This document shows positions 902 through 57,402 of a stretch of 64,000 bases of DNA, piece after piece. The DNA comes from Pedobacter sp. (GTDB taxonomy: Bacteria; Desulfobacterota; Desulfuromonadia; Desulfuromonadales; Syntrophotaleaceae), in assembly GCA_050253415.1 (NCBI GenBank), contig JBFWJC010000002.1, forward strand, positions 160,001 through 224,000, in the 5' to 3' direction. The translations under genes and the position numbers were made by a program. The notes beneath the pieces are model-generated. The model made no database searches. It was not told the origin of the DNA and worked only from the letters and a program-made list of their open reading frames with translations. The first letter of the stretch is position 1; every line of letters starts with the position of its first letter.

Positions 902-2380
902 TTAGCTGCTTTTGGTGGGTGCTTTTGGGCCTTTTTTGGCTGCTGGCAAGTGGATCCTGGCGGTGTGTTCCCCGGCGGCGTTCCTCGGGAACGGGTAGGT
1001 TATGAGCGCGTAGCTGCTGTATAGGCTGACCTTGGTTATGGCGACGGACAGGACTTTGCGCTGCTCCGTTTCGCTGAGCAGGTCGAACTCTTCCCGGGTG
1101 ATGGACAGGGCATCCCAGTCGGGTTGATCCGGTCGGGTGGCTTCGATCTTGCGCCGACGCTCGCGCAGTGCGCCGATGGATGCTTCAATGTCCTGCATTT
1201 TTGCCCGGGCGTCTTCCATGCGCAGGATCCCGTCTGCGATGGCAGCGACCAGGTTATTCTTGCGCTGTTGTTCCTGGTGTTCTTCGCGGTCGATGGCTGC
1301 GAGCTGCTCTGAGGTGGTGTCCTGGCTCTGGGAGGCATGCCACCATGTTTTAAGTTTATCGGTGCTGCTCAGCGTACCGAAAAGGTTGGTGAGCACGCGC
1401 TCGTTGAGGGTGTGCTGTGGGATCATTCTGGACCGGTCGCATGCTCCTGCCGTGTTTTTGGAGCGGCAGCCATAGTAATCGATGCGCGTGCCGTCGTTGC
1501 GGGTGCGACTGTTGCGCCAGGTCTTGACGGTGAGATCGCAATAGCCGCAGCGCAGCAGGTCCAGGTTGGACAAGAGGGCCGCGGCTTCGCGTTTGACGCC
1601 GTTGGTCTTGCGGGTGCGTCGACTGGATCGGATGCGATCGGCTTGCTCGGCGTCCATGACGGGAGTCCAGGACCCTGCGACGATGTCGCCTGTCTCCGGG
1701 TCTTTACGCAGCGCTTGATAAAAGAGCAGTCTATCGTCGGATATGATGCGGCGGATGGAGATCTCCGCACGGCCGAGTTGTTCGGCGATGGCTTTGGCAC
1801 TGTTGGTTTCGGCCAGTTGCCAGATATGTTGACATTCGGCGAGTTGGTCGGTGTCAATCTCTACTTCGCCGGTGTTGCGATCGTAGCGGTATGGGGGTGG
1901 CGCTTTTCCGCCAAGCCATTTACCGGCGCGCAGTGCTTCGCGGCGGCCTTCTGCCATGCGGGCCTGCAGCACCTTCATTTCGACGGAGGAAAAACCGCCC
2001 TCCATCAGCAGGAGCATCCAGTCGCTGTGCTGCTTGGGGTCGAGGCTGCGTGATGGTGTTGCCAGTTTGACGCCGTGTTCGGCGCAGAGATTGAGCCAGC
2101 TGAGATAGTCGGCGAGGGTGTCGTCGCGGCTCAGGCGTGATAGTTCGATGACCAGGATCATGCCTATCTTGCCGGCACGTACGTCAGACTCAAGGCGTGC
2201 GCGTTCGCGCAGATCTTCGACCTTACCCTTGGCAGCACTGGCATGGCCGTCGTCATAGACTTCGACCTGCCATCCCTGCGATGAGGCGTAGGCCGGCAGC
2301 TGCTCGCGTTGGACGGTGAGCCGGTGGGATGGTTTGTTTTTGTCTTCGCGGGATTTGCGTATGTAGACTGCTGCGATCAT
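902..2380 (-). CDS. Large serine recombinase (phage integrase)
   Basis: YIRKS catalytic motif, SRLSR, recombinase domain, CGYC...C..C zinc ribbon, coiled coil; adjacent to attL. Confidence 0.93.
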   Translation of the reverse strand: MIAAVYIRKSREDKNKPSHRLTVQREQLPAYASSQGWQVEVYDDGHASAAKGKVEDLRERARLESDVRAGKIGMILVIELSRLSRDDTLADYLSWLNLCAEHGVKLATPSRSLDPKQHSDWMLLLMEGGFSSVEMKVLQARMAEGRREALRAGKWLGGKAPPPYRYDRNTGEVEIDTDQLAECQHIWQLAETNSAKAIAEQLGRAEISIRRIISDDRLLFYQALRKDPETGDIVAGSWTPVMDAEQADRIRSSRRTRKTNGVKREAAALLSNLDLLRCGYCDLTVKTWRNSRTRNDGTRIDYYGCRSKNTAGACDRSRMIPQHTLNERVLTNLFGTLSSTDKLKTWWHASQSQDTTSEQLAAIDREEHQEQQRKNNLVAAIADGILRMEDARAKMQDIEASIGALRERRRKIEATRPDQPDWDALSITREEFDLLSETEQRKVLSVAITKVSLYSSYALITYPFPRNAAGEHTARIHLPAAKKGPKAPTKSS

Positions 2381-3569: not shown

Positions 3570-3902
3570 TTATTGGCATCTTGTCACGCCGAGGACCTTC
3601 CAGCTTTCTCCACGTACGACTGAGCCATAGTCGATTATTTCAACCCGGATGGGCTGACCGGATATCCCATGTTCCGCCAGGACAAGACAAAAGTAATCGG
3701 CGTAACCGTCACGTTGGGACCCATTGTCAAAAACCCCGATTTTCAGGATGGAATCTGTCGCCCAAAGGGCATCTTTTACCTGGGGCTCCTGGTCGCTTTT
3801 TAGGTAGCGCACGACCTCTTGTTGCTGTCTGCTTTGATCGGCATGAACAACTGCGGCCACGGTGAATAAAAGAGATGCTGCAATAAAAACAAGTCGATAC
3901 AT
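3570..3902 (-). CDS. Secreted hypothetical protein
   Basis: RBS AAGGAG; signal peptide ending AVVHA. Confidence 0.65.
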   Translation of the reverse strand: MYRLVFIAASLLFTVAAVVHADQSRQQQEVVRYLKSDQEPQVKDALWATDSILKIGVFDNGSQRDGYADYFCLVLAEHGISGQPIRVEIIDYGSVVRGESWKVLGVTRCQ

Positions 3903-5598: not shown

Positions 5599-6084
5599 AT
5601 GGAAACAAGTCACAGGAGTCAACCGGAAGAGACGTTGAGGGAGTTTTTGTCCTCGTGGTGCAAGGACGGAGGTAAGGCTGCCGGGATAAATCTCAAGCGG
5701 CAGGCGGAACTTTTGGGGTTGCCGGAGAGTACGTTTGGTAACGCGATCAATCCGCACCTGAAGGCTATGGAGTACAAGCTTTCGTGGTTGATCCCTCATA
5801 TGTTGATCCTCAACAGTCTTGAGCCGATGAACTACCTGGCGTCTTGTGTCGGCATGGTGATGTTTAAGCTTCCGGATGCTCCTGGTGGGATCTCTGAGTT
5901 GCATAAGGAACTGGCTCTGTCGATCAAGGAGTTTGGCGATGTGGTGATGGAGACGGGCGAGGCGCTTAAGGATAACCGTCTGCAGCGTCACGAGGTGATC
6001 AAGATCGAGAAGGAGATAGACGAGGTTGTGCGTCAGTTGATGGGTTTTAGGCAAAAGCTCAAAGACAACATGGAGCGTTTGTGA
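5599..6084 (+). CDS. Phage CII-family regulatory protein
   Basis: Position after cro; ...KEFGDV...ALKDNRLQRHE..KIEKEI pattern resembles P2/186-type CII. Confidence 0.7.
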   Translation: METSHRSQPEETLREFLSSWCKDGGKAAGINLKRQAELLGLPESTFGNAINPHLKAMEYKLSWLIPHMLILNSLEPMNYLASCVGMVMFKLPDAPGGISELHKELALSIKEFGDVVMETGEALKDNRLQRHEVIKIEKEIDEVVRQLMGFRQKLKDNMERL

Positions 6085-6232
6085 TGGCCCAGCGCCCGTA
6101 CCAGATCACGCGAGAGCAGCTGACGGACGAGGAGTGGCATCACATGTCTAAGGTGATGTTTCCGGTCCTGTTGGAGGCCAAGCGCAAGGCTCAGGCGATT
6201 ATGGCGCAGCGCAAGCGCGAGCAAGCGAACTA

Positions 6233-13468: not shown

Positions 13469-13939
13469 ATGAGACCACTCACCCGCACCGAATGCCAAGG
13501 CCCGTTTGTCCTGTCGCTGATCTGCGCCCTTGCCAATGGCCTGCAGCAAGCCGAACCCGTCAAGCACAGCGCCCGCGTAAACCGCCTGGCCAAAGTCGAA
13601 GAGACCGCCATGCGCGCCATCGACTTTTATCCGGATGCCGAACTGACGCCCCAGGTGCAGGAGTTGGCCGCCGAGTTTTTCGACCGGGTGGAAAAAATAT
13701 TCGTAGAGACTGTTGCGCCGCCTTTGGTCATGGATGAAAAACGCCAGAGCCAGATCGCCGCCCTGATCAGCACCAGCGTCGATGATTGCCGCAGCACCAT
13801 CGCCCTGATGGACGATGCAAGTTTACTGCAGGCTGTGCTGGACCATATGGATAAAAACAACATCGACGGAAAAACCCGCCGACAGGTCATCGCGCGAAGG
13901 ATCCGGGCGATCAATAAGCAGGCCAGCCAATGTGCATGA
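13469..13939 (+). CDS. Hypothetical phage protein
   Basis: RBS GGAGA; codon style matches the phage backbone. Confidence 0.6.
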   Translation: MRPLTRTECQGPFVLSLICALANGLQQAEPVKHSARVNRLAKVEETAMRAIDFYPDAELTPQVQELAAEFFDRVEKIFVETVAPPLVMDEKRQSQIAALISTSVDDCRSTIALMDDASLLQAVLDHMDKNNIDGKTRRQVIARRIRAINKQASQCA

Positions 13940-14054
13940 ACCGCCAGCCACTAAGCCCGAAAGTTTGCCCCATCTGCGGCGGATATCTCGCCACCATCGG
14001 CAACAAGACCCGCGAGTGCGAGCAATGCGGATACCGCCGCAAGGAGAAAACCAA

Positions 14055-14639
14055 ATGACCAACCCAGCCGCCACCCCGCAACCCATGTCCCGCCAAGGTC
14101 GTCAAAACGTCCTGCCCGAAGTCATCAAAGACCTCGAAGCCCGCACCGCCGTCGGCATTACCAAATACGGCACCCAACTGCAAACCCACAACGGCCGTGA
14201 CGCCCTGATCGATGCCTACCAGGAATCCCTCGACCAGGTGCAATATCTCAAACAGGTACTCATGGAGCGCGACAACCCCGCACCCGAATACAACTGGCCC
14301 GAGACCATCTTTGTCCGGCAAAACACCACCGCCCAGCAACTCGACCATATCCTCAGCGAGGTCGACGAAATCAACCAGATCGGGCCCCATATCGATCCAG
14401 ACGGTAGCCCCAACGACCCGATCCTGCGACACCTGCACATGAAGGTCGCCGACCTGCACCACAGCATCGAGACCTACTGGCGCAAACTAGAGATTGAGCG
14501 CGGGCCCGAATACGTCTCCGCCGTGTTCCAAGCCGTCGAGGATGAAAGCAGGGTGCGCGGATATTACGACCTGGATCCCATCGAAGAACCGCTGCCATGC
14601 CTTGCCGGACCGTTTGGGTTGATGCCCCAGGGAGTTTGA
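14055..14639 (+). CDS. Hypothetical phage protein
   Basis: RBS AAGGAG; R..VGITKYGTQL..NGRD.L.DAYQE..D motif seen in phage proteins. Confidence 0.65.
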   Translation: MTNPAATPQPMSRQGRQNVLPEVIKDLEARTAVGITKYGTQLQTHNGRDALIDAYQESLDQVQYLKQVLMERDNPAPEYNWPETIFVRQNTTAQQLDHILSEVDEINQIGPHIDPDGSPNDPILRHLHMKVADLHHSIETYWRKLEIERGPEYVSAVFQAVEDESRVRGYYDLDPIEEPLPCLAGPFGLMPQGV

Positions 14640-14644
14640 CAGGT

Positions 14645-14833
14645 ATGGCCACAGATCCGGCCCGCGCCAAAAAGCGCACCCTGGCCCAGTGGCGCCACGA
14701 GCAACGCCAATCCTGCCGAGCCAGACCATGCTCCGCCGTCGCCGAAATGCTCGCAACCGGCAAGACCGCCGGCCAGATCCGCTGCGTGATCTGCGTGTGG
14801 GAAGGCCAGATCAAAAAGATAGCGCCGCAGTAA
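14645..14833 (+). CDS. Small hypothetical protein
   Basis: RBS-like AGGT; followed by a GC hairpin. Confidence 0.4.
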   Translation: MATDPARAKKRTLAQWRHEQRQSCRARPCSAVAEMLATGKTAGQIRCVICVWEGQIKKIAPQ

Positions 14834-14863
14834 AAGCGATTTGACTGTGAGATAGCTGCGGCA

Positions 14864-14888
14864 TCCCGCCGCCGTGGTGGCGGCGGGA
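14864..14888 (+). terminator. GC-rich hairpin just upstream of the cassette array
   Basis: TCCCGCCGCC-GTGGT-GGCGGCGGGA then AGATTTT. Confidence 0.4.
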
Positions 14889-14893
14889 AGATT

Positions 14894-14995
14894 TTGAAAC
14901 GCCAAGGTAAGACGCGCCGCACTTCCGACGGCGCACCACTAAATTTAACGCGAACCTGCCAGCTATTGCGCGTCGTCTTGACCGGCTGGTTGTGC
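14894..14995 (-). repeat. attC-1 (102 bp)
   Basis: Minus strand GCACAAC CAGCC GGT-C-AAGAC...GTCTT ACC TTGGC GTTTCAA. Confidence 0.82.
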
Positions 14996-15013
14996 CCGCC
15001 TACGGAGGAGTGA

Positions 15014-15253
15014 ATGAAGATCTGGTTTGTAGGAAAGCCGATTGTTGTTGATGGAGAAGAACTTGGCTGGATGCCGGAAGGGGCTTTTGAGACAGAAGAG
15101 GAGGCGGCGAAGGTTGCCACAGATGCCGAATTTATCGTACTGGCCGAGGTTGGAGGAAGATTTCCAGAAAAAGCCACAGATGCCGAAAAGCTGTATTACC
15201 CGAAACTGGAGCGGTGGGAGGATAGCGCCCTTTACAAGATGCGGAATCAGTAA
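15014..15253 (+). CDS. Cassette 1 hypothetical protein
   Basis: RBS GGAGGAG; fills the space between attC-1 and attC-2. Confidence 0.7.
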   Translation: MKIWFVGKPIVVDGEELGWMPEGAFETEEEAAKVATDAEFIVLAEVGGRFPEKATDAEKLYYPKLERWEDSALYKMRNQ

Positions 15254-15255
15254 GG

Positions 15256-15330
15256 GAACAACGCCTGCCGATCAGCGGTGAACGAAGGAGCGCAGCGGAT
15301 GAGTTATCCGCTGCATGGGCCTTGTTAAAC
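15256..15330 (-). repeat. attC-2 (75 bp)
   Basis: Minus strand GTTTAAC AAGGC CCAT-G-CAGCGGA...CCGCTG ATCGG CAGGC GTTGTTC. Confidence 0.85.
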
Positions 15331-15350
15331 AGCCATAAGGAAATGGTCAA

Positions 15351-15737
15351 ATGACACGATTTAAATTTAGAGCATGGGACTCCGTGAACAAGGAAATGCT
15401 TGACGCAAATACTGGATGTTTTTTCTACGAAGAAGACAACGGTTTCCATTGTGGATACCTGGCTGGTGTCAACGCTCCTGCTGATGTTGCGGGGGATTGG
15501 GTTGAATGCCCTGTGATGCAATGGACCGGGATCCGTGACAAAAACGGCATCGAGATTTACGAGGGTGACATTGTAAACCTTGACACTCTTTGCAAATACG
15601 AAGGCGGTGGGACTATTTGGAGAATTAAGCCGCACAAGGTTGTTTTTGAACGCCAGAGATGGCTCCCGGATAGACTGTCGGAGTCTGAAATTATTGGCAA
15701 CATCTACGAACACCCTGAGCTGGTCGGGGCAGTTTAA
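15351..15737 (+). CDS. Cassette 2: YopX-family protein
   Basis: FKFRAWD...MQWTGIRDKNGIEIYEGDIV...EIIGNIYEHPEL. Confidence 0.88.
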   Translation: MTRFKFRAWDSVNKEMLDANTGCFFYEEDNGFHCGYLAGVNAPADVAGDWVECPVMQWTGIRDKNGIEIYEGDIVNLDTLCKYEGGGTIWRIKPHKVVFERQRWLPDRLSESEIIGNIYEHPELVGAV

Positions 15738-15865
15738 CGCTTGAGATCACGGGATTGCGGAGGAAACTATGACAATTGATATGGATATGCCATTTGGCGA
15801 GTTTGCACGGAAACACCTTGATACCGGCGCGGGTAGCAATTCCGCTGTGGATCGACTGGTTAAAT
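15732..15865 (-). repeat. attC-3 (134 bp; contains the RBS and start codon of the cassette 3 gene)
   Basis: Plus strand GTTTAAC GCTTGA GATCAC GGGATTGC...GCAATTCC GCT GTG-G-ATC GACTG GTTAAAT. Confidence 0.82.
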
Positions 15866-16164
15866 CGCCGCCGGTAGTCTGCCTGTGCGGATCTACTCGT
15901 TTTTTCGATGCGTTCAGAGACGCGAATCGCGCCGAAACGATGGAGGGAAAGATCGTGCTTGCTCCCGGAGTGTTTGGCCATTGCGGCGATCCATTGACTG
16001 ACGACGATAAGTTGCGGCTAGATATTTTGCACTATTGGAAAATTGACCTGGCCGACGAGGTGCTTGTGCTCAATGTTGGCGGGTACATTGGCAGCAGCAC
16101 CCAAAACGAAATCGAGTATGCCAAGCGAACCGGGAAACCTGTGCGCTTTCTTGAGGCGATTTAA
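15769..16164 (+). CDS. Cassette 3: nucleoside 2-deoxyribosyltransferase-like / DUF4406-like protein
   Basis: VVCLCGSTRF...KIDLADEVLVLNVGGYIGSSTQNEIEYAKRTGKPV. Confidence 0.7.
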   Translation: MTIDMDMPFGEFARKHLDTGAGSNSAVDRLVKSPPVVCLCGSTRFFDAFRDANRAETMEGKIVLAPGVFGHCGDPLTDDDKLRLDILHYWKIDLADEVLVLNVGGYIGSSTQNEIEYAKRTGKPVRFLEAI

Positions 16165-16218
16165 CGACTTAGTATGAGCGCGCCTGCGTAGCAGGTCCGC
16201 TCGATGCGCTGGTTCTAA
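16159..16218 (-). repeat. attC-4 (60 bp)
   Basis: Plus strand ATTTAAC GACTTA GTATGAGC..CCTGC GTA GCAGG..GCTC-G-ATGC GCTG GTTCTAA. Confidence 0.8.
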
Positions 16219-16252
16219 AGGGTTTTCGCGCTCGGCGAAGCCGATAGGGGGT

Positions 16253-17110
16253 TTGATTGTGGGTTTATTTGAGACAACAGAAGAAGAACTGTACCAGATC
16301 GCCATAAGTCGGCCGCTTGAAGAGAAGATTGATCAGGCAATCTCTCTTATCCAGGCGACTGAAGGCCAAGCGTTGAAATTATCTGATGATGGCTTTTACG
16401 TCTGCTTTTCTGGGGGGAAAGACAGCATTGTCATGGCTCGGTTGTTTGAGATGGCCGGTGTTAAATTTGGCCTACATTACAACAATGTGACAATCGATCC
16501 TCCCGAACTGGTTCGGTTTATCAAGGAAGAATATCCCCATGCGGAATGGCATTCTGTCGGCAAGCACCTGATCAACTACATGGCCGAAGACAAGGTTTGC
16601 GGTCCCCCAACGCGGCTAATTCGCTGGTGTTGCGAGATTTACAAAGAGCAAGGTGGGGTTGATAAATTCCGGGCAATAGGGGTGAGGGCCGAAGAGTCCG
16701 CCAGGCGGAAGGGGTTGTGGAAGCAGATTACCACTGACAGGAAAACGAAGATGCCGATTTTATGCCCCATTTTGTATTGGACACATGCCGACATCTGGGC
16801 ATTCATCAAGCAGCATGACATGCCGTATTGCTGCTTGTATGACGAGGGTTTTGACCGCCTGGGCTGTGTCGGGTGCCCAATGGGAGGACCAAAAGGGCAA
16901 GCCCGCGATTTCGCCCGCTGGCCGAAATATGAAGCGATGTGGAAGCGTGGATTCAGGAAGTATTTTGACAAGTACAAGGGCGTTCCGAAGCGCAACGGGG
17001 AGCCTCGGGCAATCGAAAAATTCCCAACCGTAGACGACCTGTGGAATTGGTGGATAAGCGGCAAAGCCTATGAAGGCGACAATCCGGATTGCCAACTGTG
17101 GCTGTGGTAG
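16253..17110 (+). CDS. Cassette 4: PAPS-reductase-family (PP-loop) protein
   Basis: FSGGKDS, RWCCEIYKE, GVRAEESARR, PILYWT, RLGCVGCP. Confidence 0.88.
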   Translation: MIVGLFETTEEELYQIAISRPLEEKIDQAISLIQATEGQALKLSDDGFYVCFSGGKDSIVMARLFEMAGVKFGLHYNNVTIDPPELVRFIKEEYPHAEWHSVGKHLINYMAEDKVCGPPTRLIRWCCEIYKEQGGVDKFRAIGVRAEESARRKGLWKQITTDRKTKMPILCPILYWTHADIWAFIKQHDMPYCCLYDEGFDRLGCVGCPMGGPKGQARDFARWPKYEAMWKRGFRKYFDKYKGVPKRNGEPRAIEKFPTVDDLWNWWISGKAYEGDNPDCQLWLW

Positions 17111-17128
17111 GTTTTGCGCGAAAAGACT

Positions 17129-17230
17129 TTAGAACGATCATGGTCAGCGACGGTGTGAGAACGGACGCGCCGCACCGACCTAAACGAGAATCGCCGCAGG
17201 TCTTCCGTTCGCTGGACCTGCTGGTTAGAT
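17129..17230 (-). repeat. attC-5 (102 bp)
   Basis: Plus strand TTAGAAC GATCAT GGT CAGCGA CGG...CCG T TCGCTG-G-ACC TGCTG GTTAGAT. Confidence 0.85.
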
Positions 17231-17250
17231 TTCTTTCTATAGAGGAACTT

Positions 17251-17451
17251 ATGAAACCTAAATGCCCACATTGCGATCACCAGTTTGATGACGACCAAGT
17301 TTGGCACGGAAGCAACAACTGCGAATTCCCAACCGAGCGCGACGGTGATACGGGGGAATTCGACTGCCCGATCTGCGGGAAGCCGCTGTATGTTCGTATT
17401 GAATTCACCCCCGCATGGTACTTCACCGACGATAACGGCATTGAAATCTAA
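17251..17451 (+). CDS. Cassette 5: zinc-ribbon protein
   Basis: RBS GAGGA; CPHC...CPIC. Confidence 0.7.
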   Translation: MKPKCPHCDHQFDDDQVWHGSNNCEFPTERDGDTGEFDCPICGKPLYVRIEFTPAWYFTDDNGIEI

Positions 17452-17531
17452 TAACAAAGATCAGCGGCGAAGGAGGCCGTAGCCTATGAAACTGAAGCGT
17501 TTATTTCGTCCGCTGTATTGGCTGGTTATGC
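17446..17531 (-). repeat. attC-6 (86 bp; R' box begins ATT instead of GTT; contains the RBS and start of the cassette 6 gene)
   Basis: Plus strand ATCTAAT AACAAA GAT CAGCGG CGAA...TTCG T CCGCTG-T-ATT GGCTG GTTATGC. Confidence 0.75.
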
Positions 17532-17695
17532 GCTGCACTGGAACTATTTATTTGGAACCTGGCCTTAGAGTAACCACTTCTGGCTGGGTGATTATTTCTG
17601 ACGGGAAATCGAAAGATGCTTTGCCTATCAGCCTCGTCTCGCAAGAGATTGTGGATAAGGTGGAAGCCAGTTTGGCAAGTTGGGGTTACACATAA
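17486..17695 (+). CDS. Cassette 6 hypothetical protein
   Basis: RBS AGGAGG inside attC-6; TAA stop coincides with the next R box. Confidence 0.6.
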   Translation: MKLKRLFRPLYWLVMRCTGTIYLEPGLRVTTSGWVIISDGKSKDALPISLVSQEIVDKVEASLASWGYT

Positions 17696-17744
17696 CGACT
17701 AGCTGACCGAGAGCGCAGCGATTCGGTCGAGCGGCTTGTTGTAA
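17690..17744 (-). repeat. attC-7 (55 bp)
   Basis: Plus strand ACATAAC GACTA GCT GACCGA GAGCGCAGCGAT TCGGTC-G-AGC GGCTT GTTGTAA. Confidence 0.85.
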
Positions 17745-17756
17745 TGCGAGGGACCT

Positions 17757-18020
17757 ATGAAAAAGAACCGATTGGCCGCAAAGGAGTGGCGCGAAGAAGA
17801 TCAACGGAAAAAGAAGCAAGCTGAAGACATTGAGTACGCCACAAGCAAAACATACGACGCAGAAAAGCGCATCCGTGGCTTGAGTGCAACAATCGAGTAT
17901 GCCGGGCATCCAGAAATCGCAGAAAAGGTAGAGTCTGCGAGGTTGCTATTAGCAGAATCTTACGAAAATCTGCAAGCAATACAACGACTAGCTGACCGAG
18001 AGCGCAGCGATTCGGTCTAG
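17757..18020 (+). CDS. Cassette 7 hypothetical coiled-coil protein (reads into attC-8)
   Basis: RBS GAGGGA; stop TAG lies inside attC-8. Confidence 0.65.
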   Translation: MKKNRLAAKEWREEDQRKKKQAEDIEYATSKTYDAEKRIRGLSATIEYAGHPEIAEKVESARLLLAESYENLQAIQRLADRERSDSV

Positions 18021-18033
18021 CGGCTTGTTAGAC
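17979..18033 (-). repeat. attC-8 (55 bp; 46/47 identical to the attC-7 core)
   Basis: Same as attC-7 except the bulged base (G versus T on the plus strand). Confidence 0.85.
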
Positions 18034-18048
18034 ATTAAATAAAGGAGC

Positions 18049-18243
18049 ATGAAAATGTTGATTACGTTTAAAGCAAGATGCCCTGAGTGCGGAGTGGATG
18101 GAAAACACACAGTGGAAATAGGACAAGACCTGCACCCGAAGAAGGTACTTCTTTGCGACACGGAAGTTGGAGGATGCGACTGTTATTTCGCAGCATTTAT
18201 AAACATAAGGGCCGAAGCTGAAACGGCAAAGATAGATGTCTAA
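18049..18243 (+). CDS. Cassette 8: small zinc-finger protein
   Basis: RBS AAGGAG; CPEC...CDTEVGGCDC. Confidence 0.65.
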   Translation: MKMLITFKARCPECGVDGKHTVEIGQDLHPKKVLLCDTEVGGCDCYFAAFINIRAEAETAKIDV

Positions 18244-18351
18244 CAGAGGTAACAATGGAAAATTTTCCACTTATCACCACGATTAAAGCCAAAAAGTGGA
18301 AAACAGCCGTCAACAAATGACAACAGCCAAATGACAAAGGACACCCCCTGA

Positions 18352-19101
18352 ATGTTCCAGCGCGCCCAACAACTCATCGACGTTGCCAGCCAGCACCAAA
18401 AAGCCGAACTGGTCACACTGCACAACGCCGTGCTCGAACGCATGGAAGCCTACAAGAAGGCCAGCACCGCCGCCAACAAGCGCGACTGGGCCGCCGCCAA
18501 AAAAGGCCTGCAGGAGTGCATCGACCAACTCTTGCCGGTGTACTTCCCCGAGCTGTCCGCCGCCGACCCGGAGGTGTTCGACACCCAAAAAGCCGCCCTC
18601 GCCTGGCTGCACAACCACTTCGGCAAACCGTACCCGTCCGCCGGCAAGTTCAGCCAGGATATCCGTGACGGGCTGTGCCTGCAGCAGCAGAACAAAACCA
18701 TCCTGCGCAAGGATCTCAAAAAATACGCCGAGGTCATCGGCCATGACAAGCAGGCCGCCGCCGCCTCGGCCAGCCAAGCCGAAAAACGCGAAAAGCTCGA
18801 AATCGAAAAGCTGGAGCTGGATGTCGAAAAACGCCGGATGGAAAACCGCAAGGAGGACAAAAACTGGATCGCCCGCGACACCGTCTTCGAACGCGAAGGC
18901 GCCCTTGTCGGTCAGATCATGGGCGAAGCCCGCCATCACCTCGGCCGCGCCGTACCCGCCGTGATCCATGCCGCCAAAGGCGACCCCGAGCGCACCCCGG
19001 AGATCAAAAAAATTATCGAAGAAGCCCTGTTCGACGCCTTCCGCTCCCTGTATGAATCCGGCGAAGTCGACATGACCTTTTTGCAAGAAGAAGAGGACTG
19101 A
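18352..19101 (+). CDS. Putative terminase small subunit
   Basis: Coupled to the GpA-type large subunit; coiled-coil EKLEIEKLELDVEKRR region. Confidence 0.55.
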   Translation: MFQRAQQLIDVASQHQKAELVTLHNAVLERMEAYKKASTAANKRDWAAAKKGLQECIDQLLPVYFPELSAADPEVFDTQKAALAWLHNHFGKPYPSAGKFSQDIRDGLCLQQQNKTILRKDLKKYAEVIGHDKQAAAASASQAEKREKLEIEKLELDVEKRRMENRKEDKNWIARDTVFEREGALVGQIMGEARHHLGRAVPAVIHAAKGDPERTPEIKKIIEEALFDAFRSLYESGEVDMTFLQEEED

Positions 19102-21077
19102 TGCAAACCGCCCTGGCCGCCGACATCTTTGCCCAGCCCCTGCCCGAGTTTTTCCCCGAGCAGCTGCGCCACGCCTGCAGCGGTAAACGCATCCGCTACA
19201 CGCTGCCGCGCTCCGTGCGCGAACGCATGCAAATACCCGAAGACATCACCGTCAGCCAATGGGCCGAAAAATACCGCCGCGTCACCGCCATCGACGCCGA
19301 GCCAGGCCGCTGGCGCATCGACCGCGTCCCCCACACCAAAAAACTCATGGACATGATCAGCCTGCCGTGGGTCAAGGAATTCTGGCTGTGCATGGTCGAG
19401 CGCGCCGCCAAAACCCAGATAGTGCTCAACGCCGCCTGCCGTCAGATCGACCGCGGCATAGACTCCGGCAACGTATTTTGGCTCATGCCAAGCGAAGCCG
19501 ACGCCAAAAAAGCCCTCAGCGAACGCATCATACCCGTACTCAAAGAGAGCCCCCGCATGGCTCGGCTGCTGTCGCGCTACGCCGACGACACCACCAGCAC
19601 CAAGATCCGCTTTAAACACGGACCGCGCCTGTTTCCCGCCTGGTCCAACAGCCCCGGCTCCATCGCCTCGTTTTACGGCAAGCTCAACATCGGCGATGAG
19701 ATCGACAAATACGGCGACCGCTCCGGCGGCGAAACCGACCCCATTACCCTGCTCAAAAAACGCGGCCGCGACAGCGACGAATCCAAATTCCTGTTTGCCA
19801 GCACCCCCGCCGGTAAATTTATATACAAAGGCACCATGGCCTGCCAGCAAGTCTGGACCTACAAAAACCGCTGCCCCCATTGCGGTGAATACATCCTGAT
19901 GGACGCCGATCATTTCATGCTACCCGAAGGCGCCACCCAGGAGACCATCAAACACGGCGAGCACCCCGTCACCTACGCCTGCAACGACTGCGGCGTAGAA
20001 TGGGACGAAACCGACCGCAAAACCGCCTACCAAAACGGCGACTGGTTCGCCATCAAAGGCGCCGATGTCGAGCGGCCCACCACCATCGGAGCCTGGTTGC
20101 CGGCCTTCCCGCTGCCCAACATCCCCATGGCCGAGATCGGCGCCGCCATCGCCCGCGCCAACACCGGAGATCTCGCCGGTAAGATGGACCTCGCCCACGG
20201 CTATAAAGCCGTCGACTACGAAGCCGAAAACAAAGACCGGCAAGAAGACGCCATCCTGCTGCTGCGCGACGACCGCCCGGCAGGCATGATCCCCACCGAA
20301 GCCAACGGCCTCGAAATATCCATCGACACCCAGGATAACGGCTTCTGGTATCGCATCCGCGCCTGGCGTTACGGCCTCGATCTCAAAAGCTGGCTTGTCA
20401 AAGCCGGATATGTGCCCAGTGCCAACGCCGCCGACTTTGCCGCCCTCGATGATCTCATCGCGGCCGAATACCCCGACACCAACGGCGAGCCCCACCGCAT
20501 TATGGCCGGCATCATCGACAGCGCCGGGCATCGCACCAGCGAAGTCTACGCCTGGTGCCGCCGCACCGGAATCATACCAGCCAAAGGTGCCCAAGGCCGC
20601 AAGACCCAGCCCGTCACCGTCAGCCGCATCGACCGTTTCCCCGGTGACAACAAACCGATCCCCGGCGGCCTCAACCTCTACCATATCGACACGCATTTTC
20701 ACAAAGACCAACTCGCCAACAAACTGCAGATCGACCCCTCCGATCCCGGCGCCCTGGTGCTGCACAGCGGCTATAGCCTTGACCAGCTCACAGCCCTGCA
20801 CCGCGATCCAAACGGTAAACAAGCCCACAACCTGGAGGAATACGCCCGCCAGATGTGCGTCGAATACCGCGACGAGCGCGGCCTGTGGCAATGCCCCGAC
20901 GGCAAAGCCAATCACCTGTGGGATTGTGAAAACAACGGCCTCGCCCTGGTCATGTACCTGGGTTGGCAGCACAAAGGCAGCGTAAAAAAGAAGCCCGCCA
21001 CCAACGGACTCAAACCCAAAGACACCGCACCAGCCGCCACCAGCCGCGACCTTCCGGCATGGTATCGCAACCGCTAA
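19101..21077 (+). CDS. Terminase large subunit, lambda GpA family
   Basis: ITVSQWAEKYR, GDEIDKY, ASTP, CPHCGE, IDTQDN, IDSAGHRT, NHLWDCE. Confidence 0.9.
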   Translation: MQTALAADIFAQPLPEFFPEQLRHACSGKRIRYTLPRSVRERMQIPEDITVSQWAEKYRRVTAIDAEPGRWRIDRVPHTKKLMDMISLPWVKEFWLCMVERAAKTQIVLNAACRQIDRGIDSGNVFWLMPSEADAKKALSERIIPVLKESPRMARLLSRYADDTTSTKIRFKHGPRLFPAWSNSPGSIASFYGKLNIGDEIDKYGDRSGGETDPITLLKKRGRDSDESKFLFASTPAGKFIYKGTMACQQVWTYKNRCPHCGEYILMDADHFMLPEGATQETIKHGEHPVTYACNDCGVEWDETDRKTAYQNGDWFAIKGADVERPTTIGAWLPAFPLPNIPMAEIGAAIARANTGDLAGKMDLAHGYKAVDYEAENKDRQEDAILLLRDDRPAGMIPTEANGLEISIDTQDNGFWYRIRAWRYGLDLKSWLVKAGYVPSANAADFAALDDLIAAEYPDTNGEPHRIMAGIIDSAGHRTSEVYAWCRRTGIIPAKGAQGRKTQPVTVSRIDRFPGDNKPIPGGLNLYHIDTHFHKDQLANKLQIDPSDPGALVLHSGYSLDQLTALHRDPNGKQAHNLEEYARQMCVEYRDERGLWQCPDGKANHLWDCENNGLALVMYLGWQHKGSVKKKPATNGLKPKDTAPAATSRDLPAWYRNR

Positions 21078-21087
21078 GGAGACCACC

Positions 21088-21306
21088 ATGACACCACCGC
21101 AAATATACCGCCGCAAAGACATGCTCACCGTCGCCCAATTCGCCAAAGTCATCGGCATGAGCCGTAGTTTTGCCTATCAACTGGTCGAGCGCGGACCGCA
21201 AGAAGGCGGCGTTCTGGCGTTTCGTTATGGCAAGACAAAAGGGCTTAGGGTGCCGGCGGAAGAGGTGACGCGATATCAGCAGGAGAGAAAGGTTGTTGAG
21301 GTATAA
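21088..21306 (+). CDS. Excisionase-like / HTH_17 DNA-binding protein
   Basis: MLTVAQFAKVIGMSRSFAYQLVERG...LRVP; RBS AAGGAG. Confidence 0.7.
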   Translation: MTPPQIYRRKDMLTVAQFAKVIGMSRSFAYQLVERGPQEGGVLAFRYGKTKGLRVPAEEVTRYQQERKVVEV

Positions 21307-21360
21307 CGGATTTGAGGTGTGCGGCGAGCGTAGCGAGTCCACACCAGCGAAGGGTTATGA
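21301..21360 (-). repeat. attC-9 (60 bp) of the solitary cassette
   Basis: Minus strand TCATAAC CCTTC GCTGGTGTGGA CTCGCTACGCTCG CCGCACACC TCAAATCC GTTATAC; cassette ends GTTATGATGCC/GGCATCATAAC are a perfect 11-bp inverted repeat. Confidence 0.75.
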
Positions 21361-22187
21361 TGCCCATGCAGAAACAGCGAATCATACGGGTTTTTCCGAG
21401 ACGGACAGCGGCCACGCCAGATGATGATCTGGTGAGGATCGCCACAACGCCCGGCCTCTTTGACGAAGCCGATGAAGTGCATGTGTCGGTGACGTTTACT
21501 TGGGATTTACCCCTTGTCGAAAAACTGGCGAAAGCCTGGGAGCCGGTGGCTCCTGTGACGATCGGAGGCCCGGCGACGGGAGAAGCTGGGGGGGATTTTA
21601 CCCCTGGCTTGTACGTCAAAAAAGGCTACGTACTCACCTCTCGCGGCTGCCCGAACAACTGCTGGTTTTGTTCCGTGCCAAAACGTGAAGGCCCGTTGCG
21701 GGAATTGCCGATCACCGAAGGCTGGAACGTCCTCGATGACAACTTGTTGGCATGCTCTGACGATCATGTCCGGAGAGTGTTCGAGATGCTGTATGGCCAG
21801 AAGAAAAACGGACGGATTCAATTTACTGGCGGACTGGAAGCTGCCCGCCTCAAACCCTGGCACGTTGAAGCCCTGCGGGGATTGAGGCCGAAACAGATGT
21901 TCTTTGCGTACGACACGCCCGACGATCTGGAACCGCTGCAGGACGCTGGTAGGATGCTGTTGGATGCTGGCTTTACGATCACAAGTCACGCCCTTCGGGC
22001 CTATGTGTTGTGCGGCTGGCCGAAGGATAGTTTTGAGGCGGCAGGCCGCAGGATGCAACAAACGATAGACGCCGGTTTCATGCCGATGGCGATGCTTTAC
22101 CGTGGCGTAGCCGGCAAACGTGATACGGAGTGGATGCGCTGGCAACGGGAATGGGCGAGACCAGCCATAATTGCCAAGGCATCATAA
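21357..22187 (+). CDS. Cassette 9: radical SAM protein
   Basis: TSRGCPNNCWFCSVP CxxxCxxC, LDDNLLA; start at 21357, 21360 or 21366. Confidence 0.85.
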   Translation: MMPMQKQRIIRVFPRRTAATPDDDLVRIATTPGLFDEADEVHVSVTFTWDLPLVEKLAKAWEPVAPVTIGGPATGEAGGDFTPGLYVKKGYVLTSRGCPNNCWFCSVPKREGPLRELPITEGWNVLDDNLLACSDDHVRRVFEMLYGQKKNGRIQFTGGLEAARLKPWHVEALRGLRPKQMFFAYDTPDDLEPLQDAGRMLLDAGFTITSHALRAYVLCGWPKDSFEAAGRRMQQTIDAGFMPMAMLYRGVAGKRDTEWMRWQREWARPAIIAKAS

Positions 22188-22262: not shown

Positions 22263-22329
22263 GTCCACCACGTCCACCACGTCCACCACGTACATGACAA
22301 CCCCCACCCATGCGCCGTAATCTCGGCGC
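22263..22329 (+). promoter_or_regulatory. Putative late promoter: 3x GTCCACCAC repeats then ATGACA-18-TAATCT, leaderless
   Basis: Tandem 9-mers at 22263-22289 lie just upstream of the -35; the -10 ends 6 nt before the ATG and there is no RBS. Confidence 0.5.
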
Positions 22330-56442: not shown

Positions 56443-56931
56443 CTACGATTCCGGATATATAGCCAAAGGCTCAGGCCATTCGAAATCCGGTACAGGTTTG
56501 TAAATTTCAGCGATAAGGTTAAGATCTTTTTGCGAGTCGAGATAGGTATAGGTCAAACCTTCCCAATCACCGCCCTGCAAAACAGGAAGGCCTTTGCCCT
56601 CATAGAACTTAACCGCTTCTTCATAATTGTCGGTACCAAAGGCGCAATGATGTAGACCTTCTCCCTTGTCTTTCAAAAATTCAGCGTAAATGCTTTTGTC
56701 GTCTTTCGGCTCGATCAGTTCCCACTGAACACCTCCGATATCGCACAAGGCGAGTCGCATGGCATAATCGACCTTCTCGCCGCGAATAATCATGTTACTC
56801 ACGGTATTCGGATTGAATTCGTAGATTTTCCAGGGGCCGACACCATACTTGTCTGCCCATAATTTTACGGCCTCGTCGCAATCTTTTACTACCATGGCAA
56901 CCTGAAGTACTTTGTTGAACAAGGGTTTCAT
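56443..56931 (-). CDS. VOC/glyoxalase-family protein
   Basis: QVAMVVKD, WELIEP, FLKDKGEGLHH. Confidence 0.85.
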   Translation of the reverse strand: MKPLFNKVLQVAMVVKDCDEAVKLWADKYGVGPWKIYEFNPNTVSNMIIRGEKVDYAMRLALCDIGGVQWELIEPKDDKSIYAEFLKDKGEGLHHCAFGTDNYEEAVKFYEGKGLPVLQGGDWEGLTYTYLDSQKDLNLIAEIYKPVPDFEWPEPLAIYPES

Positions 56932-57402
56932 AACAAACTCCCTTATACCGTTAGATTTTTAAATTTTGAGTTCAATACGAATAATCCAGTTATCCCATAA
57001 AAAGAGCCTGTAGCCACTTTCCATCACAGGCCGAGTAGGCATTGAACCGGACCATGCCGACAGCGGCTTTCCCCTTCACCGCCAGAACAATGTGAACGGT
57101 GGTGACATCACCGAAGCCGCTGCACAATTCAAAGGCCAACAATCCTGTACAAAAGGCACCTCCTCTCCTGGTTTCGCACCAACTTGTTTAAAAACCTTAA
57201 ACACTCTCAGGTCACGCCAATTTGCAAAATCAATCAAACCTACACCGAGATAAATCCAAACGGCTTGTGACCTCCCTTTGGACCAGTTTGTGTTGTCTCC
57301 TTTCCTTGCGGATCTCTCCGGAAAAGCTTTTTGAGTTTCCGCGATAAATTTTTCCTGCCGCGATAGTATTTCAAACAGTATTTTATTTGTGCTTTACATA
57401 AG

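Follow-up and report, generated by a model that had tools for sequence, protein, structure and literature searches.

Integrons are usually seen as bacterial devices, and chromosomal ones have recently been presented as banks of anti-phage defence genes. Why, then, would a temperate phage carry an integron-type cassette array, and which enzyme would move its cassettes? The locus that raises this question lies in a stretch of 64,000 bases (the window), which covers 160-224 kb of contig C2 (JBFWJC010000002.1) in the 4.1-Mb host genome G000, a metagenome bin from a landfill. The original prediction described here eight AAC...GTT hairpins alternating with eight small genes, read as an integron-type array in a temperate phage genome that has no integron integrase. 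Here, we report that the element is very probably a lambda-like temperate prophage, which integrates by means of its own serine recombinase, and that it carries a genuine cassette array without an integrase of its own (CALIN), headed by an attI-like site and accompanied by a solitary cassette further downstream. All eight hairpins, alternating with eight small + strand open reading frames (ORFs) between 14894 and 18243, were found at the positions first given for them; the ninth cassette (21307..22187) and the attI-like site at 18244-18327 had been overlooked. The units are as follows.

14900..15261, + strand: cassette 1, with attC at 14894-14995 (top strand minus) and a gene at 15014-15253 (79 aa)
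15262..15737, + strand: cassette 2, with attC at 15256-15330 and a YopX gene at 15351-15737
15738..16164, + strand: cassette 3, with a long attC at 15732-15865 that has the gene start inside it and a gene at 15769-16164 (131 aa)
16165..17134, + strand: cassette 4, with attC at 16159-16218 and a PAPS-reductase-like gene at 16253-17110
17135..17454, + strand: cassette 5, with attC at 17129-17230 and a Zn-ribbon gene at 17251-17451
17455..17695, + strand: cassette 6, with attC at 17449-17531, which holds the ribosome-binding site (RBS) and start codon, and a gene at 17486-17695 (69 aa)
17696..17984, + strand: cassette 7, with attC at 17690-17744 and a gene at 17757-18020 (87 aa)
17985..18243, + strand: cassette 8, with attC at 17979-18033 and a Zn-ribbon-like gene at 18049-18243; it adjoins the attI-like site
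18244..18327, - strand: attI-like site, right of cassette 8, with the palindrome GGAAAATTTTCC 13 nt from the crossover
21307..22187, + strand: solitary ninth cassette, with attC at 21301-21360 and a radical-SAM gene at 21357-22187, after the stop codon of a helix-turn-helix (HTH) gene

Each cassette was judged by a covariance model of host attC sites (R1), by the complementarity of its ends over 8 nt, and by Pfam and PHROGs searches with its gene product. R1 was built from 14 attC sites of the intI-proximal array of the host, with the R and L helices set by hand, and contains no phage sequence; it was run unfiltered over both strands of all 64,000 bases. Its top eight matches in the window are the eight hairpins, all on the minus strand and scoring from 53.9 to 18.0 bits (E 3e-11 to 0.056), with spans of 55 to 134 nt that include 4-nt flanks. 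Cassette 5 is the best site (53.9 bits, E 3e-11), followed by cassettes 6 (34.2 bits, E 3.6e-6), 1 (32.7 bits, E 8.9e-6), 4 (26.1 bits), 7 (25.7 bits), 8 (25.6 bits), 3 (19.4 bits, E 0.024) and 2 (18.0 bits, E 0.056). Ten matches were obtained at E<=10, the ninth of which, at 21301-21360 (minus strand, 16.1 bits, E 0.17), is the further real site of the solitary cassette. The tenth, at 56928-56956 on the + strand (14.4 bits, E 0.46), comprises barely more than two R boxes and lies outside the structural region. In a control of 46,427 bases from viral contigs L010-L012, the three loci that a search for the terminase large subunit (TerL) returned and whose TerL proteins are 82%, 47% and 22% identical to that of the window, R1 found nothing below E=4; an Rfam scan of 14000-19000 at E<=10 gave three chance matches, none of them to an attC family.

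The finer features of these sites agree with the same assignment. The characteristics of attC include L boxes with an extrahelical base, an unpaired spacer and a variable terminal structure, as listed in PMC12614218. The bulged base that had been predicted in the L-box stem was recovered: all eight sites align end to end with the host model, whose L helix has a bulge, and a simple scanner placed the extra base on one and the same arm in 5/5 sites that it detected. In + coordinates, all nine sites of the window have AAC as their left and GTT as their right boundary, and both triplets are invariant (AU, AU and CG pairs) in 17/17 phage-borne sites from six loci. Across these 17 sites, in an alignment (A4) fitted to the model structure, 94.9% of cells pair, as against 76.1% when shuffled (0/500 shuffles reach the observed value) and 27-40% in slid controls, and 9/14 pairs show compensatory changes. 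Covariance model, covariation and end complementarity thus all agree on the integron-type array that had been proposed.

End complementarity was measured by comparing the 8 nt that follow GTT with the 8 nt preceding the AAC at the end of that unit. Over the nine units, 52/72 positions match, in comparison to 20/72 for the flank left of the same hairpin, and none of 100,000 permutations reached 52/72 (mean 27.1, s.d. 4.7). The values are 5/8, 7/8 and 8/8 for cassettes 1-3, 4/8 for cassette 6, 6/8 each for cassettes 7 and 8, and 8/8 (11/11 by eye) for the ninth. The claim that the two ends of each unit are complementary therefore stands overall, cassette 5 being the exception that is weighed below. 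Such complementarity is the signature expected of units that were once circular, in which both ends would join into a single R box with the crossover inside R'.

The strand of the sites determines which segment is the mobile unit. R1 matched all nine sites on the minus strand, which makes the + strand of the window the bottom, recombinogenic one and puts the crossover at AA|C in the left box, not at G/TT on the + strand as originally supposed. From this position of the crossover it follows that a unit consists of a hairpin and the gene to its right; in + coordinates it reads C-[attC hairpin]-GTT-[RBS, gene]-...AA. This layout agrees with an attI-like site that closes the array on the right. 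The radical-SAM unit has a hairpin upstream of its gene and none downstream, and a single PAPS cassette in a distant prophage (G073, below) is built alike. The converse unit, a gene with its downstream hairpin and a G|TT crossover on the + strand, was ruled out by the model strand, the attI-like position and these two single-cassette inserts.

What do the cassettes encode? Pfam and PHROGs put a name to three of the eight array genes, if Zn-ribbon matches below the cut-off are counted. The cassette 2 product matches YopX (PF09643, 4.9e-19; phrog_98), that of cassette 4 PF01507 (2.6e-22; phrog_424) and that of the ninth cassette phrog_9298 (3.6e-17). The cassette 3 protein has a weak, below-cut-off match to DUF4406 (PF14359, E 0.038), the Zn-ribbon Pfam matches of cassette 5 are all sub-threshold, and the cassette 1 protein has no match in Pfam or PHROGs. 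RBS-like motifs are present, and all boxes and ORFs are intact. The genes fit closely into their units: in five of the nine cassettes the TAA stop codon lies on the AA|C crossover (15737, 16164, 17695, 18243 and 22187, the stops of cassettes 2, 3, 6, 8 and 9), the cassette 8 junction reading ...TCTAA|CAGAGG, and in three (cassettes 3 and 6 and the radical-SAM cassette) the gene starts inside or on the attC. The ORF of cassette 7 has CAA at the crossover and continues 36 nt into the next attC; the attC sites of cassettes 7 and 8 are one base apart in the 47-base AAC-to-GTT core. The TAA of the backbone HTH gene (21306) likewise ends exactly at an AA|C crossover.

The base composition sets the array apart from the backbone, as had been noted: GC is 0.46-0.55 with positive skew at 14.8-18.3 kb, whereas both flanks have a GC of ~0.60 and negative skew. 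With eight sites in 3.2 kb and intI on another contig, the locus is a CALIN, the term for at least two attC sites that have no integron integrase close by. It is not a complete integron, in which intI adjoins attI, since neither PF00589 nor TIGR02249 matches anywhere in the window. The tyrosine recombinase said to be missing from the window is thus indeed absent there by PF00589; the three PF00589 matches on contig C2 (two above the curated cut-off, one below) lie at 28-31 kb and 470 kb, all outside 160-224 kb.

An integrase is, however, found elsewhere in the host. The search for intI that had been suggested returned a full-length IntI without stops on contig C1 (G000:C1:1750302-1751246; TIGR02249, 447.6 bits against a cut-off of 265, which was exceeded in 0/14 control genomes). 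It adjoins a classical attI and a cassette array that reaches the contig end. R1 detected at least 53 sites at E<=0.01 genome-wide (150 of 978 candidates were scored) and at least 61 sites at E<=0.1 in 81 kb of host array regions, in about 10 segments, some of them on C2. The attC sites of the host arrays score 18.5-98 bits, a range within which the best phage site falls, and host cassettes have a GC of 0.34-0.52 (phage cassettes 0.43-0.53). Since the host is a metagenome bin with intI on C1, its link to the prophage depends on binning, on attC and attI families common to both, and on the presence of host arrays on C2 itself. Further attI-type sites, at least two and perhaps three, head intI-less host arrays (C1:335857, C3:106504 and C1:about 7570), and an intI fragment (TIGR02249 positions 228-306) at C2:470321-470557 adjoins another array. 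In the intI-proximal array, the first cassette recurs as the eighth (L009:1634-2134 and 5735-6232) with the same attC and a different downstream R' half.

The segment next to cassette 8 resembles the attI sites of the host. The 12-mer GGAAAATTTTCC occurs at five places in 4.1 Mb: twice at the intI-proximal attI, once here, and at the heads of two integrase-less host arrays (C1:335.8 kb and C3:106.5 kb). Its distance to G|TT is 14 nt in the host sites and 13 nt in the phage. A blastn-short search of the host's own genome with 96 nt (18240-18335; E<=1) gave, besides the query itself, three host attI loci and one 16-nt match that lies 441 nt from the last attC of a fourth array; one match is 20/20 (C1:1751365-84), and two reach E<=0.001. 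By MAFFT, the phage segment aligns collinearly with the upstream half of the attI family of the host. By its homology and its right position, 18244-18327 is a putative attI. Reading the palindrome site rightwards was also considered; the + reading is closer to the host core, but was rejected, since ATT stands at the crossover and no cassettes follow on the right.

The prophage around the array is recognized from its backbone, whose features that concern the array are listed here.

902..2380, - strand: large serine integrase (phrog_95 integrase, E 1.5e-60), the phage's own integration enzyme and not an integron integrase
14866..14891, + strand: terminator-like GC-rich hairpin of the backbone, a 10-bp perfect stem in a DNA fold
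19101..21077, + strand: TerL (phrog_15, E 2.8e-90), phage backbone
21088-21306, + strand: HTH gene of the backbone, directly before the solitary cassette

By PHROGs, the serine integrase, a repressor and primases lie left of the array. On its right follow, in order, a 249-aa protein, TerL, the HTH protein, the portal, a protease and the major head protein; the 249-aa protein, between the attI-like site and TerL, belongs to no Pfam or PHROGs family. The T-run of the hairpin at 14866..14891 finishes at the left array junction (...TTTTGAAA|C). This hairpin was not flagged by a consensus terminator scan, and in a promoter and terminator consensus scan of 13800-19200 the counts were not above those of shuffles, making the scan uninformative on array transcription. 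Immediately before the packaging genes, the array runs in the direction of the phage genes, so that the lineage probably uses the integron machinery of its host as a swappable accessory locus.

If the cassettes are mobile, related phages should differ at this locus. A viral contig whose TerL is 82% identical (L010) has no array and no attC. A congeneric genome with its own IntI (G004; 485 bits) carries a syntenic prophage; at the locus it has two attC sites on the minus strand (37.4 and 24.9 bits), and the + strand genes there differ from those of the window. On a metagenome/virome contig (L034) there are at least five minus-strand sites and, by eye, six or seven cassettes with complementary ends, and L038 has at least one minus-strand site and one unit with 8/8 complementary ends. 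In G004, L034, L038 and L041, other cassettes occupy the same locus, with attC likewise on the minus strand. Two cassettes of the window recur. The PAPS cassette is common to L034 (85% nt and 88.8% aa identity), and the identity stops at ...TTTAGAAC. The radical-SAM cassette is found in L041 (78% nt, 83.7% aa), there in the pre-terminase array rather than after TerL as in the window; the homology begins just past the left box and stops at ...CATCATAAC, breaking at both boxes, and that of the backbone picks up again at 18328. A distant prophage in a genome of another family (G073; IntI 328 bits), called viral by IMG/VR, holds the PAPS cassette alone, inserted just before TerL (L018), with 66.7% aa identity as opposed to 21-34% for the backbone proteins. 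These comparisons show what is evidently cassette-level exchange between phages and between loci, with breakpoints at AAC boxes. The prediction that relatives would gain or lose cassettes at AA|C junctions is borne out in L034 and L041, where homology ends at the AAC boxes; together, covariance support and these change points, the two matters on which the integron reading was to stand or fall, both favour it as far as sequence can tell.

Further observations concern the relatives themselves. In the G004 prophage (L017:9969-10652), a ThyX-like gene, putatively a flavin-dependent thymidylate synthase by its translation only, and four genes of backbone GC stand between the conserved left flank and the two cassettes, so the locus varies by more than cassettes. 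In L034, an AAC box directly follows the left-flank gene at 3636-3650; after it come the initial 12 nt of the common hairpin arm, and the sequence beyond is unrelated. The far end of that array thus seems to carry a truncated attC. The PAPS hairpin of L034 (4787-4841) has the arms of the cassette 3 attC of the window (15732-15865), not those of cassette 4 (16159-16218), while the PAPS gene and both cassette ends are nearly identical despite the different hairpin; hairpins and genes are evidently re-paired between the two. A TerL search of genome contigs found no relative, and a search for the PAPS protein across the order found it in 2/233 genomes, the host's own among them. A scan of genome contigs yielded a 52% PAPS relative without attC on a 1.5-kb contig of a metagenome-assembled genome (L022), in an ordinary phage-like operon whose start and stop codons overlap those of its neighbours; the PAPS cassette gene therefore has non-cassette phage relatives.

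The cassettes themselves appear to come from a phage pool. Compared with the rest of the host genome, the nine cassette proteins have no homologue except for a weak partial match of 26% identity outside the arrays, and the PAPS and radical-SAM cassettes recur in phages. These results support, at the level of sequence, the phage-specific pool that had been suggested, with YopX, PAPS-reductase-like, radical-SAM and Zn-ribbon genes derived from phages and not from host chromosomal arrays.

How would such an array be assembled? We propose that an integron integrase, which the host would supply in trans, inserted the units singly and in succession, using the attI-like site that closes the array on the right or, for the solitary cassette, a bare GTT. 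The crossover would occur at AA|C on the + strand, excision as circles would proceed through attC x attC recombination, and a single enzyme, the host IntI, would perform both excision and insertion; in known systems, IntI is SOS-induced. The cassette genes would be transcribed with the phage operons, and we infer that the host IntI could recombine the nine sites today.

Several observations weigh against this model and are collected here. The R1 scores of three sites are weak (E 0.024-0.056 for two and 0.17 for the ninth), the pair counts come from an alignment whose fitting to the model structure favours that structure, and the bottom-strand folding energies (n=9) are no better than those of shuffles (z -2.5 to +0.3, with 2/9 below -2), because of which folding energy alone is not usable as a test here. 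The ends of cassette 5 match at 2/8 in register, the 9/10 originally given for them requiring a 3-nt offset, and the first cassette of G004 shows no end complementarity by eye. Strict co-inheritance of gene and attC poorly fits the hairpin swap on the PAPS gene. The attI-like segment is ~45 nt short of the host attI and lacks the second repeat; attI-like motifs in the G004 and G073 prophages gave nothing better than E 0.07 against the intI-proximal regions of those hosts, and no host attI motif was found in L034, L038 or L041. The host intI lies on a contig other than that of the prophage, to which it is linked by binning. Finally, public contigs were compared in three DNA sets of a single landfill study. 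Set X1, possibly the source, is collinear with the window, X2 contains parts of it at a depth of 2-3, and no joint lies at a cassette boundary, although contigs cannot reveal rare excision.

Some of these points would suit a fossil array, with real attC sites, made by the IntI of a former host and no longer recombined in the present one: no excision joints appear in the public contigs, several sites score low against the present host attC model, and the attI-like site is shorter than that of the host. We nevertheless consider this unlikely. Two attC sites that are one base apart in 47 suggest recent events, the attI-like segment matches the attI of this very host at 20/20 positions, the best phage site lies inside the host score range, and no box or ORF has decayed. 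Still less probable is capture from the sedentary chromosomal integron of the host, whose attI and cassettes the phage would have taken up en bloc, through illegitimate or homologous recombination, rather than by assembly of the array unit by unit in phages. The host character of the attI-like segment is clear, the intI-less attI-headed arrays on C1 and C3 are possible donors, and Qi et al. (2023; PMC9892861) describe captures of this sort by phages of Vibrio anguillarum. But the cassette proteins lack host homologues, the single weak match aside, and their cargo matches phage families; the genes of the host are sense in 45/49 intervals and those of the phage antisense; and relatives from other samples and hosts have different cassettes at the locus but share two with the window. 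That the hairpins are terminators, regulatory stem-loops or sites of another phage recombinase, resembling attC by coincidence, is highly improbable, for although their folding energies are unremarkable, no Rfam family matches and the phage has its own serine recombinase, the host-attC model selects exactly these sites and this strand, the AAC/GTT boxes do not vary and the L box is bulged, end complementarity exceeds every permutation, and the homology of relatives breaks at AAC boxes.

The reading of the locus as a genuine array filled by a host integrase leaves a further property to be considered, namely the direction of its genes. Because the phage codes on the attC bottom strand, all cassette genes run antisense to the layout of bacterial integrons, where a promoterless gene lies on the attC top strand and is read from Pc. 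By a longest-ORF rule, which is crude (it left out one host interval whose ORF has 39 aa and another of >3.5 kb), 45/49 inter-attC intervals of the host are sense and 6/8 of the phage are antisense; the remaining two phage intervals hold + strand ORFs with an RBS. Purifying selection acts on the + strand ORFs (dN/dS 0.074 for PAPS versus L034 and 0.10 for radical SAM versus L041), and the antisense frames of both genes contain stops. On the + strand of contig C2 the GC skew is positive throughout, which places the phage bottom strands on the lagging-strand template as judged from skew; 6/8 host arrays have the opposite, canonical arrangement, with bottom strands on the presumed leading-strand template. 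In V. cholerae, inverting an array to the lagging-template orientation raised excision from <7e-5 to 3e-2 (PMC13108822). For attG insertion no strand bias was reported (Loot et al., Nat Microbiol 2024; 10.1101/2022.09.11.507474), and an insertion bias thus cannot account for the uniform backwards layout.

A tentative explanation, which we regard as possible but rather doubtful, is that phages and hosts share one IntI and keep mirror-image cassette pools, and that this phage lineage fixed its array upstream of the terminase. If so, a phage cassette in a host integron would be antisense to Pc and silent, and a host cassette, for example one for anti-phage defence, would be antisense to phage transcription in a phage array. 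The recombinogenic strands, being on the non-template strand and on the lagging-strand template, would permit fast turnover during SOS or induction, and the phage in this host would even have acquired the host's own attI. Should the backwards orientation prove general, the phage and host cassette pools would be separate and mutually silent.

It remains to place the locus among known systems. The promoter-stem-loop cassettes (PeSLs) of T4-type phages likewise consist of small accessory genes between repeated stem-loops, shuffled among relatives. They shuffle by homologous recombination at promoter-hairpin repeats and are not known to have AAC/GTT boxes, a bulged L box, circular-end signature or dedicated tyrosine recombinase. 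With the sedentary integron of the host, the array has in common its attC family (one model serves both), the attI motif and end complementarity; it differs in that gene content is not shared, the genes are antisense, and the bottom strands lie on the lagging- rather than mostly the leading-strand template. What is described here is probably a phage lineage that uses integron machinery for its own accessory genes, with a docking site of host type and no integrase of its own.

Cassette arrays in phages were already published in 2023, so the array as such is not the novelty that it was first taken for: a screen of 10,705 phage genomes (Qi et al., Front Microbiol 2023; PMC9892861) yielded 17 CALINs, which are arrays of this kind, besides three complete integrons and one In0. 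They describe a Shewanella prophage with a complete integron and an attI-headed CALIN among structural and terminase genes, and five of six tested phage attC sites recombined with attI1. The present array resembles their phage CALINs in its attC-bounded cassettes within a prophage and in the attI that heads an integrase-less array beside structural and terminase genes; it also begins by a terminator-like hairpin, as does their CALIN, and there too a host integrase is proposed as the actor. The differences are that this prophage has no intI, whereas M16-3 has one, and that the cargo is of phage type, not methyltransferases. Here the genes lie on the attC bottom strand; the strand of gene versus attC is not discussed in the results and discussion of that report. 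Beyond its findings, the present locus varies among the members of a phage lineage, the breakpoints lying at the boxes, and one cassette occurs at two loci. Our literature search found no backwards phage arrays, no host-type attI in an intI-less phage and no single cassette at two loci of related phages; the supplements of Qi et al., outside this search, may bear on orientation.

The single cassettes have a counterpart in attG sites (consensus 5'-GWT-3') and in single attC sites without integrase (SALINs), as described by Loot et al. (2024; 10.1101/2022.09.11.507474). The radical-SAM and G073 PAPS cassettes are similar in that they occupy a plain GTT, in keeping with this consensus, away from attI; they differ from those cases in having entered phage genomes and in their backwards gene. 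A minor feature of the backbone may be added: upstream of the portal region, at 22263-22290 of the window, the 9-mer GTCCACCAC stands in three tandem copies after an A-run and is conserved in L010, and it may be a packaging or regulatory site.

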